A DNA stretch of 64,000 nt from Xanthobacteraceae bacterium (GCA_035319735.1 DATHCD010000075.1:17154-81153), one strand, 5' to 3'. Positions 37,779-48,266 are shown, counted from the stretch's first letter. Numbers and translations are program-made. Notes: generated by a model not told the origin, from the sequence alone.

Positions 37779-38969
37779 ATGCGTAACGCGTCATTACTAT
37801 CAATGCTGGCCATCGCCGCGACGAGCCTGATCGGCGCCGACGCGGCCATGGCCAAAGACCCGATTCGGATCGGCGTGCCGACGTCGCTCACTGGTCCCTA
37901 TGTCGAGCTGGGCGCGGAAGCAAAACGCGGGGCCGAGTTTGCCGCCGATGAAGTCAACGCCAAGGGCGGCGTCGATGGCCGCAGGGTCGAGCTCGAATTC
38001 GCCGACACCGAGGGCAACCCCGATGCCGGTCGGCGCGCGGCCGAGAAACTCGCGCGCAGCGGCTATCGTCTGCTCACCGGCGCAATCTCGTCGGCGGTCG
38101 GACTGGCGATCGCCGGCCAAGTGCAGAAATGGGACGCGCTTTACATCTCCTCCATCAACAAGAGCGACCGGCTGACCGGCGAAGCATGCAATCCGCGGGT
38201 GTTCCGTGCCAATCATTCGGATTCGATGGACATGGCGTTGATCGGTCCGTGGCTGAAGCAACGGCCCGAAGCCGAGTGGAGCGTGATGGCCGCCGACTAT
38301 GGCTGGGGCCACGATTCCGCCGATGCCTTCTCGGCCGCCGCGACTGCCGCCGGCAAGTCGCTCAAGATCAAGCTTTTCGCTCCGCTCGGCACCAAGGATT
38401 ACGCGCCCTACATCCAACAGATCAAGGACGCCAATCCACGCGGCCTGTGGGTTGCCTTGTCGGGCCGCGACGCCGTCAATTTCGGCATTCAAGCCAAGCA
38501 GTTCAATCTGCTCGACTCGGTTTTCGCGGTCAGCCAGAGCTTTGCCGTGCCGGCGACCATCAAGGGCATGGGCGACTTGGCGGAGGGCGTGTGGGGCATC
38601 GTCAACTACACGTCCACACTCGACACGCCCGGCAACAAGGCCTTCGTTGCCGCCTGGGTGAAGGCTTACGGCAAGGAGCCGGGCAATTTCGAGGCGGAAA
38701 CCTATGTGGCGATGAAGGCCCTGTTCGCCGCGGTCGAAAAGGCCGACAGCGTCGAACCCGAGGCGGTGGCCGCAGCGTTGTCCGACATCGCCTTCGAGGT
38801 GCCGTTCTACGGAAAGGTGACCATGCGGCCCGCCGATCACCAGTTGATGCTGCCTAACTATATTGGCCGCGTCACGCGGGTGAACGGCGAGCTGAAACCG
38901 GTGGTCAGCGTCACGGTCGATGCCGAACACGCAATCGGGCCGCCCTCGCCCGCCTGCAAGATGATGTGA
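37779..38969 (+). CDS. ABC transporter substrate-binding protein, LIV/HAAT type, system 3
   Basis: ATG 37779 preceded by AAGGAGG. Signal peptide MRNASLLSMLAIAATSLIGADAAMA. IRIGVPTSLTGPYVELG start. Confidence 0.9.
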   Translation: MRNASLLSMLAIAATSLIGADAAMAKDPIRIGVPTSLTGPYVELGAEAKRGAEFAADEVNAKGGVDGRRVELEFADTEGNPDAGRRAAEKLARSGYRLLTGAISSAVGLAIAGQVQKWDALYISSINKSDRLTGEACNPRVFRANHSDSMDMALIGPWLKQRPEAEWSVMAADYGWGHDSADAFSAAATAAGKSLKIKLFAPLGTKDYAPYIQQIKDANPRGLWVALSGRDAVNFGIQAKQFNLLDSVFAVSQSFAVPATIKGMGDLAEGVWGIVNYTSTLDTPGNKAFVAAWVKAYGKEPGNFEAETYVAMKALFAAVEKADSVEPEAVAAALSDIAFEVPFYGKVTMRPADHQLMLPNYIGRVTRVNGELKPVVSVTVDAEHAIGPPSPACKMM

Positions 38970-39017
38970 CACCGAGCCGGCTGCGGCCATCCGCAGCCGG
39001 CGCTTTTGCTCGCCGCC

Positions 39018-39634
39018 ATGCGCATCGAAACTTCCCTCACGCCTGCGCGCCGTGCTGCGATGACAGCAGCCGGCTTGTGGCGCGACCGCACTCTGCTCGA
39101 TCATCTGGATGCCACCGTTGCCGCGCATCCCGACAAGATAGCGGTGACCGCGTTGGAGGTCTGCCGCCCGACGCTGCCGGCCGATTGGAGGTGCGCGGCG
39201 CGGGCAATTTCGTCGGCTACCTCAAGCGCCCCGAATATTACGCGGTCGATGCCGACGGCTGGTTCGACACCGGCGACCTTGCCCGCATGGATGCCGACGG
39301 CTACATCCGCATCACCGGCCGGGCCAAAGACATCATCATTCGCGGCGGCGAGAACATCCCGGCGGTGGAGATCGAGAACCTGCTCTTTCAGCATGCGGCG
39401 GTGCGCGAAGTGGCCATCGTCGGCATGCCTGATCCGCAGCTGGGCGAGCGCGCCTGCGCCTTCGTCACGCTGCGCGAGGGGCAAACTCTGACCCTCGATG
39501 AAATGGTGGCGTTCCTGGAAAAGCAAAGCATGGCCAAGCAGTATTTTCCGGAGCGCCTCGAAGTGCTGGGCGAAATGCCGCGTACCGCCAGCGGAAAAAT
39601 TCAGAAATTCCGTCTCCGCGAAATGATCCGGTAA
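39018..39634 (+). pseudogene. AliA-like acyl-CoA ligase paralogue 3, inactivated by a large internal out-of-frame deletion
   Basis: Frame A (ATG 39018) gives MRIETSLTPARRAAMTAAGLWRDRTLLDHLDATVAAHPDKIAVTA, which aligns with residues ~8-50 of paralogue 1. From about 39158 a different frame gives GLPPDAAGRLEVRGAGNFVGYLKRPEYYAVDADGWFDTGDLARMDADGYIRITGRAKDIIIRGGENIPAVEIENLL...SGKIQKFRLREMIR, the last ~155 residues of the family. The ~350 central codons, including the AMP-binding motif, are missing. Confidence 0.8.
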
Positions 39635-42232: not shown

Positions 42233-43126
42233 TCAAAGCGCGTCGACGAAGGCCACCATTTGCCGACGCTGGTCGGGATCGGGCAACAGGCCGCTCATGG
42301 CGCCGAGATTGTCGGTCATGTGCGCCGGATCGGACGTGCCGGGAATGACCGTCGTCACTCGCGGATCAGCCAAAAGATATTTGAGGAAGAATTGCGCCCA
42401 GGTCTCGGCAAACCCGCGCGCCCAGTCGGGAATTTCCTTGCCGCGTACGGCGCGGAACAGCCGGGCGCGGCCAAACGGCAACGCCGTGAGCACGCCGGCC
42501 TTGACCTCCGCCGCGAGCGGCAGGATGCGCTTCTCCGCTTCGCGGTCGTCCAGTGAATAATCGATCTGCACGAAATCAGGTTTTTCCCGCGCCAGCACCG
42601 CCTCGACCGCGGCAAAGTCGGCGTGGCGGGTCGAGGTAATACCGATGTAGCGGGCGACGCCTTGCGCTTTCCACTCCCTGAACTGCGCGAGGGATTGCTG
42701 CGGGTCGCGCACATTGTGGAGTTGCAGCAGGTCGAGCTTCTCGGTCTTCAGCCGGGTCTGCGAGCGCTTCAGCTCGGCAGCGTCGGGCGCCTCGAGCTTG
42801 GTGGCGATAAAGAGCTTGTCGCCCAGGCCGGCAGGTCCGATCACGTCACCCAGCACGCTCTCGGCATCGCCATAGACCGACGCCGTGTCGATCAGGCGCC
42901 CGCCGCCTGCGGCCAGCGCCTGCACCACCGCGGCCGCCTTCTGCCGGGTCGCGTCGTCATTGGTGTTGAACACCTGGGCGGTGCCGAGGCCAACCACCGG
43001 CAGCCGCTCGCCGCTACTGGGAATGGCGCGGGTGAGGATCGCGGGAGCCTGCGCGAAGGCTCGCGGCGCCAACGCCGCCGCGCCAGTCGCTATCGTGAAT
43101 TCGCGTCGCGTCATGCGGATGCTCAT
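42233..43126 (-). CDS. Aldo/keto reductase with a twin-arginine (Tat) signal peptide
   Basis: The real start is ATG 43126 inside merged ORF 42233..44065; it overlaps the upstream stop as ATGA. Leader MSIRMTRREFTIATGAAALAPRAFAQA. AKR landmarks IDTASVYGDAE (Asp/Tyr), FIATK (Lys), LQLHN (His). Confidence 0.85.
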   Translation of the reverse strand: MSIRMTRREFTIATGAAALAPRAFAQAPAILTRAIPSSGERLPVVGLGTAQVFNTNDDATRQKAAAVVQALAAGGGRLIDTASVYGDAESVLGDVIGPAGLGDKLFIATKLEAPDAAELKRSQTRLKTEKLDLLQLHNVRDPQQSLAQFREWKAQGVARYIGITSTRHADFAAVEAVLAREKPDFVQIDYSLDDREAEKRILPLAAEVKAGVLTALPFGRARLFRAVRGKEIPDWARGFAETWAQFFLKYLLADPRVTTVIPGTSDPAHMTDNLGAMSGLLPDPDQRRQMVAFVDAL

Positions 43127-44421
43127 GCTCGTTCTCCTTGCGTTGCGGCGGCGTCCACCGCAAGCGCAGCGTGACGTTCCTGGGCCCATCCTAACGCCGC
43201 CGACAGGACGAGCCAGCCCGCCGCGACCGGCAGCGCAACAAGCGCGATCGCGCCGAGTTTCAGACCGAGCGCCTGCAGGCTGTCGAAAACCCAGCCATAC
43301 AAGGCGTCGGAGCCGCGATAGATCACCACGTCGATCAGGTTCTTGGCTTTGTACTTCTCCTCGCGCGCCAGCACGGTGAAGAACACTTGCCGCGCCGGAT
43401 TGGCGATAGCGAAATTCATCCAGCGCTGAACCACTTGCACGCCGACGACGACGGCAAGCGTCGGCGCCAAGAACAGCGCGGCGAAGCCGATGATGTAAAC
43501 CGCCGGCAGCGCGCCGGCTCCGGCGCCGGTGCCAAAGCGCTTGAGCAGCCGCCCGGTGGCGAAGACCTGCGTCGCCAGGCTGAGCAAATTCACCGCCAGA
43601 TCCATACCGGCGAAAATGCGCGTCTGCGCGCCGGCGCCTTGCACCGCGGCCGAGACGATGTGGGCCTGTTCGAAATAAAGGATGGTGGCGCAGAACGAGA
43701 GCAGGCTGACCCAAGCGCCGACGCCGAGGAGATAGGGCGACCAAATCAGCTCCGGCAGCGCCGCGAAGGCGCTGCCGCCGAGGCGTCGGGGTTCGCTGGC
43801 GGCTCCGGTTGGCGCCGTGGCTGCGCGTTCGAGACGGTGAACGCAGAACACCGCCAGCTCCAACAAAATCGCCGCCGCGATCAACAGGTTGACAGGGCCC
43901 AGCGGTTCGGAAAGCCCAATCGTGATGCTCGGACCTAACAGCGCCCCGGCAGTGCCGCCGGCACCGATGAAGCCAAACAGCCGCTTGCCCTGCTCGGCGG
44001 TAAACAGGTCGGCCATGAACGACCAGAAAACGGCGACCGCGAACAGGTTGAACACGCTGACCCAAACGAAGAACACGCGCGCGATGATCACTGCGGCGAC
44101 ATCAAGCGTCAGCAGCACCCAGAACAAGGCTAGGTTGGCGACGAAGAAGTGATAGACAATGGGGATGAAACGCGCGCGCGGCAGCCTCGCCACCAGCGCG
44201 CCGTAGACCGGCTGCGCAACGACGAGGGTCACGAAGGTGGCGGTGAACATCCACGGCAGGTTCCGCACGCCCCCGGCGATGCCCATCTGGTCGCGCAGGG
44301 GCCGCAACACGTAATAACCGGCAAGCAGCGTGAAGAAGTAGGCGAACGACCACAACGTCGCCGCGCGCTCCTGCGGCGTTGCCGGCACCGCCCAGCCGAC
44401 CCAGCGTCGCAGCGCGTTCAT
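43123..44421 (-). CDS. TLC / ATP:ADP antiporter family (COG3202-type) transporter homologue
   Basis: A 432-aa polytopic protein. FFTLLAGYYVLRPLRDQMG, VWVSVFNLFAVAVFWSFMADLFTAEQGKRLFGFIGAGGTAGALLG and KYKAKNLIDVVIYRGSDAL parallel the Rickettsia Tlc1 segments NYTILRDTKD, LWGSVMLSLLFWGFANEI..EAKRFYALFGIGAN and KVKGKAAIDVVAARFGKSGGAL, recalled from memory. Confidence 0.8.
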   Translation of the reverse strand: MNALRRWVGWAVPATPQERAATLWSFAYFFTLLAGYYVLRPLRDQMGIAGGVRNLPWMFTATFVTLVVAQPVYGALVARLPRARFIPIVYHFFVANLALFWVLLTLDVAAVIIARVFFVWVSVFNLFAVAVFWSFMADLFTAEQGKRLFGFIGAGGTAGALLGPSITIGLSEPLGPVNLLIAAAILLELAVFCVHRLERAATAPTGAASEPRRLGGSAFAALPELIWSPYLLGVGAWVSLLSFCATILYFEQAHIVSAAVQGAGAQTRIFAGMDLAVNLLSLATQVFATGRLLKRFGTGAGAGALPAVYIIGFAALFLAPTLAVVVGVQVVQRWMNFAIANPARQVFFTVLAREEKYKAKNLIDVVIYRGSDALYGWVFDSLQALGLKLGAIALVALPVAAGWLVLSAALGWAQERHAALAVDAAATQGERA

Positions 44422-45167
44422 GGCGTCAGTGACAGTTTCTGCTTCAGCTCAGCGGCACTGACGGCCTGTCCGTAACCCGGCGCACCGCGCTGGAAACGGC
44501 TCGCATCCTTGAGCGTGCCGACGACTACCGGATCAAAACCAGCATCGCGCACCAGGTCCTCCGCGACCCGCACCGCCTCGGGATCATCGCCGGCGATCGG
44601 AATCGCGAGCTTCGGATCCGGACGGTTCGCCTCGCGGGCAAAGATCGTGTAGTTGAGCGTGTTGAAGGCGCGGACGAGCCGGGTGCCGGGGAGGTATTTC
44701 TGCGACGTCGCGCCGATGCCGTCGTGCTCGGCCTCCTCGGCGAGGGCGGCACCGTCACGCCCGGCGACGGCATTGCAGGCGTCAAGGACGATTTTGCCCT
44801 TGAGCGCCGCGCCGTAATCCTCACCGATCTGCGGCAGCGCGCCGTATGGCACGGCGAGGAAGAGCGCATCACCAAACGCGATCGCCTGTTCGACCGTGCC
44901 GGCGTCGGCCAGCGCGCCGAGACCAGCCACCAGATCCTTTAACTCCTCGGGGTGGCGCGAGGAGAACAGCACATTGTGACCGGCCTTGACCCACAGCCCG
45001 CCAATCGTGCCGCCGATATGGCCCGAACCGATGACGCCGATGCGCGGCTTGATGCCGCTGCTGGTTTGCGCGGACGCGCCTGCCGGCCACAGCGCCGCCG
45101 CGAGCAGCACACCGCCCGCGCCGAGAAGCGTGCGGCGATTGCGGTCAACACGATCTTTCTCATGCAT
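44418..45167 (-). CDS. NADP-oxidoreductase, coenzyme-F420-dependent-like Rossmann protein, with a twin-arginine signal peptide
   Basis: Internal ATG 45167 of ORF 44418..45218. Leader MHEKDRVDRNRRTLLGAGGVLLAAALWPAGASAQ. RIGVIGSGHIGGTIG (GxGxxG) followed by FSSRHP, an NADP-type signature. The stop overlaps the transporter start (ATGA). Confidence 0.8.
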   Translation of the reverse strand: MHEKDRVDRNRRTLLGAGGVLLAAALWPAGASAQTSSGIKPRIGVIGSGHIGGTIGGLWVKAGHNVLFSSRHPEELKDLVAGLGALADAGTVEQAIAFGDALFLAVPYGALPQIGEDYGAALKGKIVLDACNAVAGRDGAALAEEAEHDGIGATSQKYLPGTRLVRAFNTLNYTIFAREANRPDPKLAIPIAGDDPEAVRVAEDLVRDAGFDPVVVGTLKDASRFQRGAPGYGQAVSAAELKQKLSLTP

Positions 45168-45575
45168 CCAAGTCTCCTCGCGTCGGGTAACGGGTTCACC
45201 ATGTGTTTGTGGCAGCATGCGCGATCAGCAGTGACACATACTGCAGAGCGACGCCAACATAGTCCGCCCCAGCACGCGACCAAAGGGCCGCCGATAACGG
45301 CACGCCGCGGTTCAGCCGGCAGATCATAAACGCGCCGCGAGCATGCAGGATCCGGCCGAGCGCGGCGATTCAGGCCTGCTTTACCTTAACCCGACCTGCC
45401 CGCGTCCTGGCGATGCACCCTTAGCGATTCTCAATTATCACGCTGCAGTGGAGTCTCATCTCCTTTTGTTAATGCCGTGACGCGTGCGACGACATTTATG
45501 GCATTTGGTAACGCAACCGCGCCGACGGACGTGAGCGCCGCCGCATTTGCGCCGCGCGGCGAGTCGCGCGGAGAA

Positions 45576-46977: not shown

Positions 46978-47427
46978 ATGACGGCACTTTTTGTCAATGG
47001 AAGAACCTACGAGGTCGATGTCGAGCCGGATACACCGCTGCTTTGGGTGCTGCGCGACACGATCGGATTGACCGGCACGAAATACGGTTGCGGGATTGCC
47101 CAATGCGGCGCTTGCACCGTGGACATCGACGGCGTCGCGATGCGCTCGTGCCAGATCCCGGTCGGCAGCGTCGGCGCTAGGCACGTCACCACGATCGAGG
47201 CACTCGCGCAGGACGGCAAGCTGCATCCCGTGCAGCGGGCCTGGCTCGATCTCGATGTACCGCAGTGTGGCTATTGTCAGAGCGGAATGATCATGGCCGT
47301 GGTGGCCCTGCTCAGGGAGAAGCCGAAGCCGACGGACGCCGACATCGACGCTGCGATCACCAATATCTGCCGCTGCGGCAGTTATCAGCGGGTGCGCGCC
47401 GCGATCCACGCCGCGGCCAGCGCCTGA
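46978..47427 (+). CDS. (2Fe-2S)-binding small subunit of the isoquinoline oxidoreductase / aldehyde oxidase (IorA/CoxS) type
   Basis: A 149-aa [15 protein letters not shown] (plant-type cluster) and [11 protein letters not shown]...CRCGSY (second cluster). Confidence 0.9.
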
Positions 47428-47522
47428 TGGCAGTCGCCGTGACCGACGCGCCGAAGCGTAGGCAAAAACCAGTCGCCGCTGCGGCACCGGACGCGCCGAT
47501 TAGCCCGGCTGCGCCGGCGCGG

Positions 47523-48266
47523 ATGCGCAAGCTCGGAGCTCTCTTGCTGCTCATCGCCGCGGCATTGGCGCCGAGCGTTGCCGCGGCCACCGAGCAAGTC
47601 GATTTGCTGTTGGTACTGGCGGCCGACGTGTCGCGCAGCATCGACAGCGTGAAATTCCAGTTGCAGCGCGAGGGCTATGCCGCCGCGGTCTCCGATCCGC
47701 GGGTACTCGACGCCATTCGCTCCGGTCGCAACGGCCGCATCGGATTGACTTTCATCGAATGGTCGGGCGTCGGCTCACAGCGGGTACTGATCGACTGGAC
47801 GACCGTCGGCGACGCCGAGTCGGCGAAAAGCTTCGGCGATCGCCTTTTGGAAATGCCGCGCTCGTTTGCGGACCGCACCTCGATCTCGGGCGCGATCGAA
47901 TTTGCCATGGGCCAGCTGGCGCACGCTCCCTGTGAATCCGCTCGCCGTACCATCGACGTCTCCGGCGACGGCACCAACAATGCCGGCCGCGACGTGACGT
48001 CGGCCCGCGACGAAGCCCTCGCGGAAGGGGTCACCATCAACGGGCTCGTGATCCTCAGCGCCACCCCGCTGCCATGGAATCCCGATCACACCAACCCGCC
48101 GGGCGGCCTCGACAATTACTACCGGAACAACGTCATCGGCGGCCCCGGCGCATTCGTCCTGGTGGCGAAAGACTTCAACTCGTTCGGCGAGGCGATGATC
48201 GAGAAGATGATTGCCGAAGTGGCGCAGTCGCGCGATGGGCGGCCGCGGCGCTCGGCCGCCCATTGA
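47523..48266 (+). CDS. DUF1194 (vWA-like) exported protein
   Basis: ORF 47265..48266. ATG 47523 yields signal peptide MRKLGALLLLIAAALAPSVAAA. An alternative start at 47427 overlaps the upstream stop. MIDAS-like LVLAADVSRSID (DxSxS). IDVSGDGTNN. Confidence 0.75.
   Translation: MRKLGALLLLIAAALAPSVAAATEQVDLLLVLAADVSRSIDSVKFQLQREGYAAAVSDPRVLDAIRSGRNGRIGLTFIEWSGVGSQRVLIDWTTVGDAESAKSFGDRLLEMPRSFADRTSISGAIEFAMGQLAHAPCESARRTIDVSGDGTNNAGRDVTSARDEALAEGVTINGLVILSATPLPWNPDHTNPPGGLDNYYRNNVIGGPGAFVLVAKDFNSFGEAMIEKMIAEVAQSRDGRPRRSAAH

Follow-up and report, generated by a model that had tools for sequence, protein, structure and literature searches.

We analysed a stretch of 64,000 nucleotides from a soil bacterium of the Xanthobacteraceae (GCA_035319735.1, DATHCD010000075.1:17154-81153; hereafter the window, with positions counted from its first letter), in which three open reading frames (ORFs) on the minus strand form a translationally coupled operon. 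Gene A (44418..45167) encodes a 249-residue NADP-type Rossmann oxidoreductase of the F420_oxidored, F420:NADPH oxidoreductase (FNO) or STEAP N-domain type, gene B (43123..44421) a 432-residue transporter with the fold of the major facilitator superfamily (MFS) and a divergent relative of the TLC/NTT nucleotide carriers, and gene C (42233..43126) a 297-residue aldo/keto reductase (AKR). Both enzymes begin with a twin-arginine leader. Our main finding is that B belongs to a family whose genes adjoin, in four phyla, NAD(P) enzymes of four unrelated families that are exported as judged by their leaders. The conserved core of the arrangement is B together with at least one such enzyme, most often an AKR, while A is accessory. 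This adjacency suggests that the transporter may supply the periplasm with nicotinamide cofactor.

To our knowledge the textbook periplasm is free of NAD(P)H, and the known exceptions either hold their cofactor permanently bound, as glucose-fructose oxidoreductase (GFOR) does, or are unexplained. TLC/NTT carriers are known from energy parasitism and from plastids, and we know of no role assigned to TLC homologues in free-living bacteria. The pattern described here links these two problems, the supply of NAD(P)H in the periplasm and the role of TLC-like transporters in free-living organisms.

Gene neighbourhoods of the transporter family

The first-pass annotation of this DNA had treated the three genes as a trio and had asked whether the trio is syntenic across genomes. 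To answer this we used 80 species-representative genomes with a relative of B at 48-88% identity. Among them all those whose B reaches an identity of about 72% or more have retained the order A-B-C, and the carriers of this order include Xanthobacteraceae and Pseudolabrys as well as the betaproteobacteria Variovorax, Xenophilus, Rhodoferax and Casimicrobiaceae. Where B is only 48-64% identical A is mostly absent, and an AKR gene still lies directly downstream of B. The three genes are thus found together in many genomes, but A-B-C is syntenic only in the closest clade of B, and we reject the trio as a conserved unit. Within that clade the trio is 66-83% identical between alphaproteobacterial Xanthobacteraceae and betaproteobacterial Variovorax, Xenophilus and Casimicrobiaceae (loci L030, L031, L035, L036, L047, L014, L039 and L045). 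Alpha- and betaproteobacterial copies related by vertical descent should be far less alike, which suggests that the whole operon has been passed on laterally.

A further 80 loci, in which B is 39-60% identical, came from a metagenome scan for which remote relatives in the B family served as seeds. Across the B loci the genes occur in the orders ABC, BC, AB, CB, BCA, CBA and CAB, and also as a divergent pair cB. For the frequencies of the partners we relied on a well-flanked set, the 116 B-family loci whose flanks both extend for at least 1 kb, counting as a partner any gene within 1.5 kb. An AKR is found in 89 of these loci, an A-type gene in 53 and neither in 16. In 8 of the 16 loci with neither A nor C, an extended short-chain dehydrogenase/reductase (SDR) with a leader for twin-arginine translocation (Tat) stands beside B, as it does at 18 loci overall. 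Taken together, 108 of the 116 loci (93%) hold at least one leader-bearing NAD(P) enzyme next to B, and the type of partner is largely particular to each clade of B. Given this frequency of adjacency, the shuffled gene orders and the translational coupling, we reject the idea that B and its partner enzymes are neighbours by chance.

The partner families found in addition to A and C are both SDRs. The extended SDR beside B is 375-400 residues long, has a textbook twin-arginine leader such as MSTTRRTFLKASGLAVSALHFAG, and holds a PF01370 epimerase domain with the motifs GGTxFxGP and YxxxK. The classical SDR belongs to a more distant clade, about 30% identical to B, whose members are named 'NTP/NDP exchange transporter' by the NCBI Prokaryotic Genome Annotation Pipeline (PGAP) and come from three phyla (Verrucomicrobiota, Bacteroidota and, for the Proteobacteria, Alteromonadales). 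All eight loci examined here, from Catenovulum, Saccharobesus, Agaribacterium, Rubritalea, Luteolibacter, Haloferula, Seonamhaeicola and Algibacter (L171, L176-L182), have a classical SDR gene immediately 5' of the transporter gene and on its strand. These SDRs show the motifs TGANRGLG, GTAR, NNAG and S...YxxxK. An Arg within the glycine motif, combined with basic residues that follow the second strand, makes up what we take to be an NADP(H)-preferring pattern. Their leader is of the type used by the general secretory (Sec) pathway, without a twin arginine, for example MKMTKLIKYLLALTLLNSAFAYSA. Since Sec exports unfolded chains, the classical SDRs cannot bring their cofactor with them and must acquire it outside the cytoplasm.

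Beyond A, C, the extended and the classical SDR and an occasional LemA, no further conserved neighbours of B were found at these loci. LemA is seen at about 10 loci overall. In close relatives of the window, LemA and TPM_phosphatase-domain genes lie just upstream of A-B-C (L001:3023-5114, L004:1-1989), and in some betaproteobacterial loci LemA lies just downstream of B (L069, L071, L074).

Several cultured strains carry B with its partners. The order is C-B in Cupriavidus sp. EM10 and on the chromid of Cupriavidus metallidurans CH34. On plasmid pAcX50f of Azotobacter chroococcum NCIMB 8003 it is B-A, and A begins MTRSRRSLLKSLG. On that plasmid (L166:945-6038) a same-strand row consists of genes for a SMP-30/gluconolactonase, an SDR, a membrane-anchored hydrolase of the metallo-beta-lactamase (MBL) fold, B and A, and this row may be a larger lactone or sugar-acid module. 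The order is B-A-SDR on pPAT9B04 of Pantoea sp. At-9b. There the A-type gene (L169:5170-5970, PAT9B_RS27865) has been annotated from a start further downstream, which leaves out its in-frame twin-arginine leader MSLSRRQLIKLAAITGAMS. This example demonstrates that automatic annotation can hide an export signal. The other cultured carriers are Variovorax species and Catenovulum adriaticum. Among plasmid and chromid records, all 7 that have an A-type gene also hold B.

The transporter, its partner enzymes and their leaders

Taken alone, B stays below the threshold of both Pfam families that come into question. It reaches 15.2 bits against a cut-off of 21 for TLC (PF03219), over one stretch of 47 residues, and 29.6 bits against 33.4 for MFS_1. 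No NCBIfam model matches it, and a single-sequence phmmer search against PDB sequences gave no match, NTT1 being reached only via the family profile. The family itself is large, with 1,313 clusters at 50% identity (E < 1e-30). Of 60 members, 41 match Pfam TLC (E <= 0.01, best E 1.8e-18) and 54 match MFS_1. A profile of 60 diverse members finds NTT1 of Chlamydia pneumoniae (9j3n) at E 2.9e-22, aligned over profile positions 4-106 and 116-432, and NTT1 of Arabidopsis (9j3j) at E 6.6e-17 over nearly the full length, whereas the next MFS protein, OxlT, follows at E 1.3e-5. The structural comparison agrees with this ranking. An AlphaFold (AF2) model of B on the family alignment (pLDDT 94) has NTT1 as its top Foldseek match, with E 1e-12 and a TM score of 0.77 for 9j3o and E 2e-10 and 0.78 for 9j3j. 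Other MFS proteins appear from 7.7e-8 on, and LmrP, SV2A, YajR and VMAT are placed behind NTT1.

The identity of B to the two NTT1 proteins is 15-18%. Both NTT1s share the residue at 22 of the 69 columns conserved in the B family, R40, K360 and D364 among them, and R/K replacements at positions 43, 82, 147 and 333 are conservative. A set of charged residues is kept across B clades with different partners, namely E18, R40/K, R43, D44, R147, R333, R344, K358, K360, D364, R369 and D372. Of these, R43, R147, R333 and R369 have an identical or a conservatively substituted counterpart in one NTT1 or both, E18 is identical in the C. pneumoniae protein, the one NTT1 compared at that position, and D372 aligns with Lys in both. 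Such conservation would fit one common polyanionic substrate. We conclude that B is truly, though distantly, related to the nucleotide exchangers, without membership at the Pfam threshold. The first-pass annotation had called B a TLC homologue, which holds by family profile and by structure but not by the Pfam cut-off. The segments that it regarded as diagnostic are present, and are exactly those that align with NTT1 in the profile search. It had also considered that B might group with MFS carriers of other substrates than nucleotides, and both searches place NTT1 ahead of these.

Gene A scores 57 bits against PF03807 (cut-off 21.6). Its nearest solved relatives are the uncharacterised Rossmann protein 4huj, the NADPH-binding oxidoreductase domain of STEAP3/4, and FNO. 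The GxGxxG motif is kept, with G47 present in 59 of 59 homologues, and so is a Ser-Ser-Arg motif (S69 in 58, S70 in 55 and R71 in 57 of the 59), a motif typical for binding of the NADP 2'-phosphate; R137 and R166 are also conserved. By its Pfam score, GxGxxG and Ser-Arg motif A is therefore of the F420_oxidored/FNO type, and the earlier description of it as a Rossmann protein of this type with a leader can be retained. Its score of 33.8 bits against the NpdG equivalog TIGR01915 lies below the cut-off of 149.8, however. The name 'F420 reductase' is not transferable on this score, and we reject it as the function of A.

Gene C scores 103 bits against PF00248 (cut-off 24) and has the full catalytic tetrad, of which D80, Y85 and K110 are found in 95 of 95 homologues and H137 in 94. 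This agrees with its earlier description as an AKR with intact Asp, Tyr, Lys and His and a leader. The nearest solved relatives, 6kik and 5dan, are of the 2,5-diketogluconate-reductase type, at low similarity. A Pfam scan found no Gfo/Idh/MocA domain in A or C. The public names of the three proteins and their homologues are generic: 'MFS transporter', 'ATP:ADP antiporter, AAA family', 'aldo/keto reductase' and 'NADPH-dependent F420 reductase'.

The leader stretches quoted in the first-pass annotation, ..NRRTLLGAGGVLLAAALWPAGASA in A and ..TRREFTIATGAAALAPRAFA in C, each followed by Q, are present as it gave them. In full, the leader of A is MHEKDRVDRNRRTLLGAGGVLLAAALWPAGASA before Q (45069..45167, minus strand) and can be summarised as N-R-R-T-L-L-G ... 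ASA, with a Gly/Ala-rich core. That of C is MSIRMTRREFTIATGAAALAPRAFA before Q (43052..43126, minus strand), or T-R-R-E-F-T-I ... AFA, with T-R-R-x-F, a short core and a basic residue before AFA. In both leaders a modestly hydrophobic core, rich in Gly and Ala, lies between the twin arginine and an AxA site. A twin arginine, a modestly hydrophobic core, an AxA site and a basic residue before that site are features of Tat signals. One account of the pathway gives the consensus as S/T-R-R-x-F-L-K (PMC3383694). Both leaders follow a Shine-Dalgarno site and an ATG. For A this is GAGGAG (45174..45179, minus strand), 6 nt 5' of the ATG at 45167, and for C it is AAGGAG (43134..43139, minus strand), 7 nt 5' of the ATG at 43126 and within the 3' end of B. 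Because these sites precede the upstream ATGs, translation starts upstream of both twin arginines. A start downstream of the motif, which would have removed the leaders, had been raised as a possible objection to export. The good Shine-Dalgarno sites and the conservation of the leaders speak against it.

For the homologues we used a simple leader rule, under which an in-frame start must be followed by a twin arginine, a core free of charges and an AxA-like site, and took the other ORFs at the same loci as background. The rule finds a leader in 57 of 60 homologues of A, 92 of 100 of C and 12 of 12 of the extended SDR, compared with 6.9% of the background ORFs. Those homologues of C that lack the twin arginine keep T-R-[KSA]-x-F-L-[KR]. 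These sequence features lend good support to the predicted Tat export of A and C.

The coupling of the three genes, which had been proposed from the same overlaps, was confirmed by reading the sequence. On the minus strand the stop codon of A and the start codon of B share an ATGA at 44418..44421, and the stop codon of B and the start codon of C share another at 43123..43126. The 4-nt overlap between A and B is also found in the relatives L001-L004. The start of B has no Shine-Dalgarno site of its own, which is expected for a translationally coupled frame. A longer ORF for A from 45218 has no Shine-Dalgarno site either, and the homologues of A start at the Met equivalent to 45167. In G+C content the operon is the same as the remainder of the window. 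Its flanks are unrelated to it, with a divergent GNAT-type acetyltransferase gene upstream and an acyl-CoA dehydrogenase gene 124 bp downstream. The latter has its own promoter-like site, which was the sole usable signal of a promoter and terminator scan around the operon. An Rfam scan of the window gave no match.

Two further observations concern other parts of the window. At 38966-39634 (plus strand) an acyl-CoA synthetase is represented by its C-terminal AMP-binding_C domain alone, and an overlapping ORF in another frame (39006-39491) resembles the N-terminal part of this kind of enzyme. The gene is probably a relic that has undergone a frameshift or lost a large internal segment. At 46978-47427 (plus strand) there is a lone [2Fe-2S] small subunit of the xanthine-dehydrogenase/aldehyde-oxidase type with no molybdopterin large subunit adjoining, followed by a DUF1194 protein at 47265-48266 (plus strand).

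Proposed cofactor exchange and its alternatives

The reading that we favour, and to which we give nearly an even chance, is that B serves reductases of the periplasm by exchanging NADP(H) across the inner membrane. B would be an inner-membrane exchanger of the TLC/NTT lineage working with the Tat-exported, folded NADP(H) oxidoreductases A and C. It would move the nicotinamide dinucleotide itself and, if it resembles NTT carriers in being an obligate counter-exchanger, would release NADPH to the periplasm in return for NADP+. As NADPH carries four and NADP+ three negative charges, such an exchange would move one net negative charge outward and could be driven by the membrane potential. The exchange of ATP4- and ADP3- in mitochondria is likewise driven by the membrane potential. 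In this way the reductases would receive, on the periplasmic side, a cofactor that is otherwise missing there, and could turn over. At about 744 Da, NADP(H) is above the usual size limit of porins and would be retained in the periplasm. All named hosts of B are diderms, as a pool confined to the periplasm would require.

We favour carriage of NADP(H) because the nearest relatives of B are nucleotide exchangers, its charged residues are conserved, its partners have a shared denominator, and the classical SDRs with Sec leaders would need cofactor on the outer side of the membrane. The presence of B in every plasmid or chromid record with an A-type gene counts in the same direction. From their sequences, what the four partner families have in common is NAD(P) binding and export rather than a fold or a class of substrates. 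NTT4 of Protochlamydia, furthermore, exchanges NAD+. Beyond the operon itself, we tentatively suggest, with somewhat less confidence, that many diderms keep a working periplasmic NADP(H) pool. This pool would be fed by an uncharacterised branch of TLC/NTT carriers with at least 1,313 clusters, and would power exported AKRs, FNO/STEAP-like proteins and extended as well as classical SDRs.

Several observations weigh against carriage of the cofactor. About 7% of the well-flanked B loci have no leader-bearing NAD(P) partner. As GFOR illustrates, a protein exported by Tat can take its bound NADP along, and A, C and the extended SDR for this reason do not strictly need a carrier. On a second plasmid of Pantoea sp. 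At-9b, pPAT9B03, a B homologue lies between a membrane-bound dehydrogenase dependent on pyrroloquinoline quinone (PQQ) and an AKR without a leader, which is presumably cytoplasmic. This layout fits periplasmic oxidation, uptake and cytoplasmic reduction. The neighbours of B in the marine clade of about 30% identity are often glycoside hydrolases and sulfatases, a setting in which an MFS sugar importer would be ordinary. AKRs with a Tat leader and about 40% identity to C are found on 158 plasmids and chromids, mostly of Sinorhizobium and Rhizobium, compared with 12 such records for B. In Sinorhizobium meliloti pSymB (L173:3902-5511) and Azospirillum ramasamyi (L174:3890-5493), B is not adjacent and the Tat-AKR is followed by a DUF6064 protein, in both of these inspected loci a polytopic membrane protein of about 220 residues. 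DUF6064 may be an alternative membrane partner of the Tat-AKRs. Finally, the Tat-signal hidden Markov models (HMMs) PF10518 and TIGR01409 do not match the leaders of A and C in the window. The first-pass annotation had imagined a periplasmic redox module served by a cofactor carrier. This idea gains from the four families of exported enzymes, including the SDRs with Sec leaders, but it loses from the trio not being a unit and from the counter-examples in Pantoea and with DUF6064.

The main rival reading, which the loci on pPAT9B03 and in Sinorhizobium favour, is that B carries the substrate or product of the enzymes, for instance a carbonyl compound or a sugar acid, by exporting the former or importing the latter. 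The exported reductases would then hold non-dissociable NADP, bound ahead of Tat export, and work by a ping-pong mechanism like GFOR, and the likeness to NTT carriers would reflect ancestry only. We regard this as rather doubtful, although it is a serious contender: the PQQ dehydrogenase and leaderless AKR on pPAT9B03, the resemblance of the marine context to a polysaccharide-utilisation locus, the Tat-AKRs without an adjacent B, the clade-specific partner types and the precedent of tightly bound NADP in GFOR all point in its direction. It would have to account for four structurally unrelated enzyme families that share only NAD(P) binding and export, and it leaves the cofactor source of the classical SDRs with Sec leaders unexplained. 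Nor would one expect from it that the charged residues of B, partly common to NTT1, are kept across clades with different partners, or that A and C often occur together with a single B. Alternatively, B could be a conventional exchanger or importer of ATP/ADP or of NTP/NDP, used for scavenging or for periplasmic energy supply, with the oxidoreductases unrelated or only loosely related to it. The nearest solved relatives are indeed ATP/ADP translocators, the names given by the Joint Genome Institute (JGI) and PGAP are 'ATP:ADP antiporter' and 'NTP/NDP exchange transporter', and the basic residues are common to NTT1. We nevertheless consider this improbable. Adjacency in 93% of loci, rearranged orders and coupling are hard to explain without a functional link, no periplasmic partner that uses ATP is encoded nearby, and at 15-18% identity to NTT1 and below the TLC cut-off the specificity need not have persisted.

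It is also conceivable that A and C are not periplasmic at all, their N-termini being membrane anchors or untranslated, and that we are dealing with an ordinary cytoplasmic reductase paired with an MFS protein for efflux or uptake. The silence of the Tat HMMs on the two leaders of the window and the PGAP start of PAT9B_RS27865 downstream of its leader would suit this view. We find it very unlikely in the light of the Shine-Dalgarno sites before the upstream ATGs and of leader features kept at frequencies far from the background. The positive n-region and the AxA site, moreover, suit a cleaved signal and not an N-out anchor, and one homologue of A (L050) passes TIGR01409 with 19.1 against a cut-off of 16.7, the other homologues remaining below threshold. 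A last proposal would build the module on the deazaflavin F420 or on a flavin, with A as a true F420:NADPH oxidoreductase and B carrying F420 or flavin. A matches PF03807, PGAP names its homologues 'NADPH-dependent F420 reductase', and some Proteobacteria make F420. This can hardly be reconciled with the low NpdG equivalog score of A, its absence from most B loci, and partners that are AKRs and SDRs using NAD(P)(H), and we give it almost no weight.

Relation to known systems

If exchange of NADP(H) by B is correct, it would give the TLC homologues of free-living bacteria a function and would offer a general answer to how periplasmic enzymes that depend on NAD(P)H are supplied. It would also open a new compartment for NADPH chemistry, with a bearing on detoxification, on the modification of cell-envelope lipids and sugars, and on biocatalysis. 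Should the cofactor reading be wrong, the pairing of the genes would remain a guide to what this large and uncharacterised family of transporters carries. The link to the cofactor is directly testable, since cultured strains carry the module (CH34, NCIMB 8003, Variovorax, Pantoea At-9b and Catenovulum adriaticum). In the searchable literature we found neither a report of an association between B and exported NAD(P) enzymes nor one of a bacterial carrier for NADP(H) or a pool of NAD(P)H in the periplasm. The transporter superfamily is known and includes a precedent for NAD+, but a periplasmic NADPH economy fed by a transporter would be new physiology.

The closest known system is the TLC/NTT family itself (PF03219, TCDB 2.A.12), represented by NTT1 of C. 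pneumoniae, NTT1 of Arabidopsis and NTT4 of Protochlamydia. It shares with B the 12-helix MFS fold, being the best match by profile and by structure, as well as the motifs LRxxK/RD in the first transmembrane helix, FWxF...KRxF and K-x-K-x-x-I-D-x-x-x-x-R. With the NAD+/ADP exchanger NTT4 it also includes a precedent for a nicotinamide dinucleotide. B differs in its low identity of 15-18%, its length of about 430 instead of about 500 residues and its score below the Pfam TLC cut-off. It is found in free-living soil and marine diderms and not in obligate intracellular bacteria or plastids, and it is tied to exported oxidoreductases. The proposed direction of transport is different too, as NTT carriers tap a host whereas B would supply the cell's own periplasm.

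On the side of the enzymes, GFOR of Zymomonas mobilis is periplasmic, contains NADP and is exported by Tat, and it is the classic proof that enzymes with a nicotinamide cofactor work in the periplasm. Its resemblance to A and C, as an NADP enzyme with Tat export, is functional only. GFOR has the Gfo/Idh/MocA fold and no dedicated transporter, whereas the enzymes described here are AKRs, Rossmann proteins of the FNO/STEAP type and SDRs, some of them with Sec leaders, and adjoin a homologue of nucleotide carriers. A second case is the periplasmic ceramide reductase CerR of Caulobacter, an NDUFA9-like extended SDR. The 2024 report on this enzyme states the source of its reductant as an open question, and where it takes up this question its authors propose electron transfer from a membrane partner and not transport of a cofactor (PMC11087976). 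The Tat-leader extended SDRs beside B at 18 loci belong to the same broad fold class. Systems of the DsbD, MsrQ and CcdA type, finally, solve the same problem of providing reducing equivalents to enzymes outside the cytoplasm. In these systems the electrons pass through thiols, haem or flavin in a membrane protein, whereas for B we propose the movement of a soluble cofactor.

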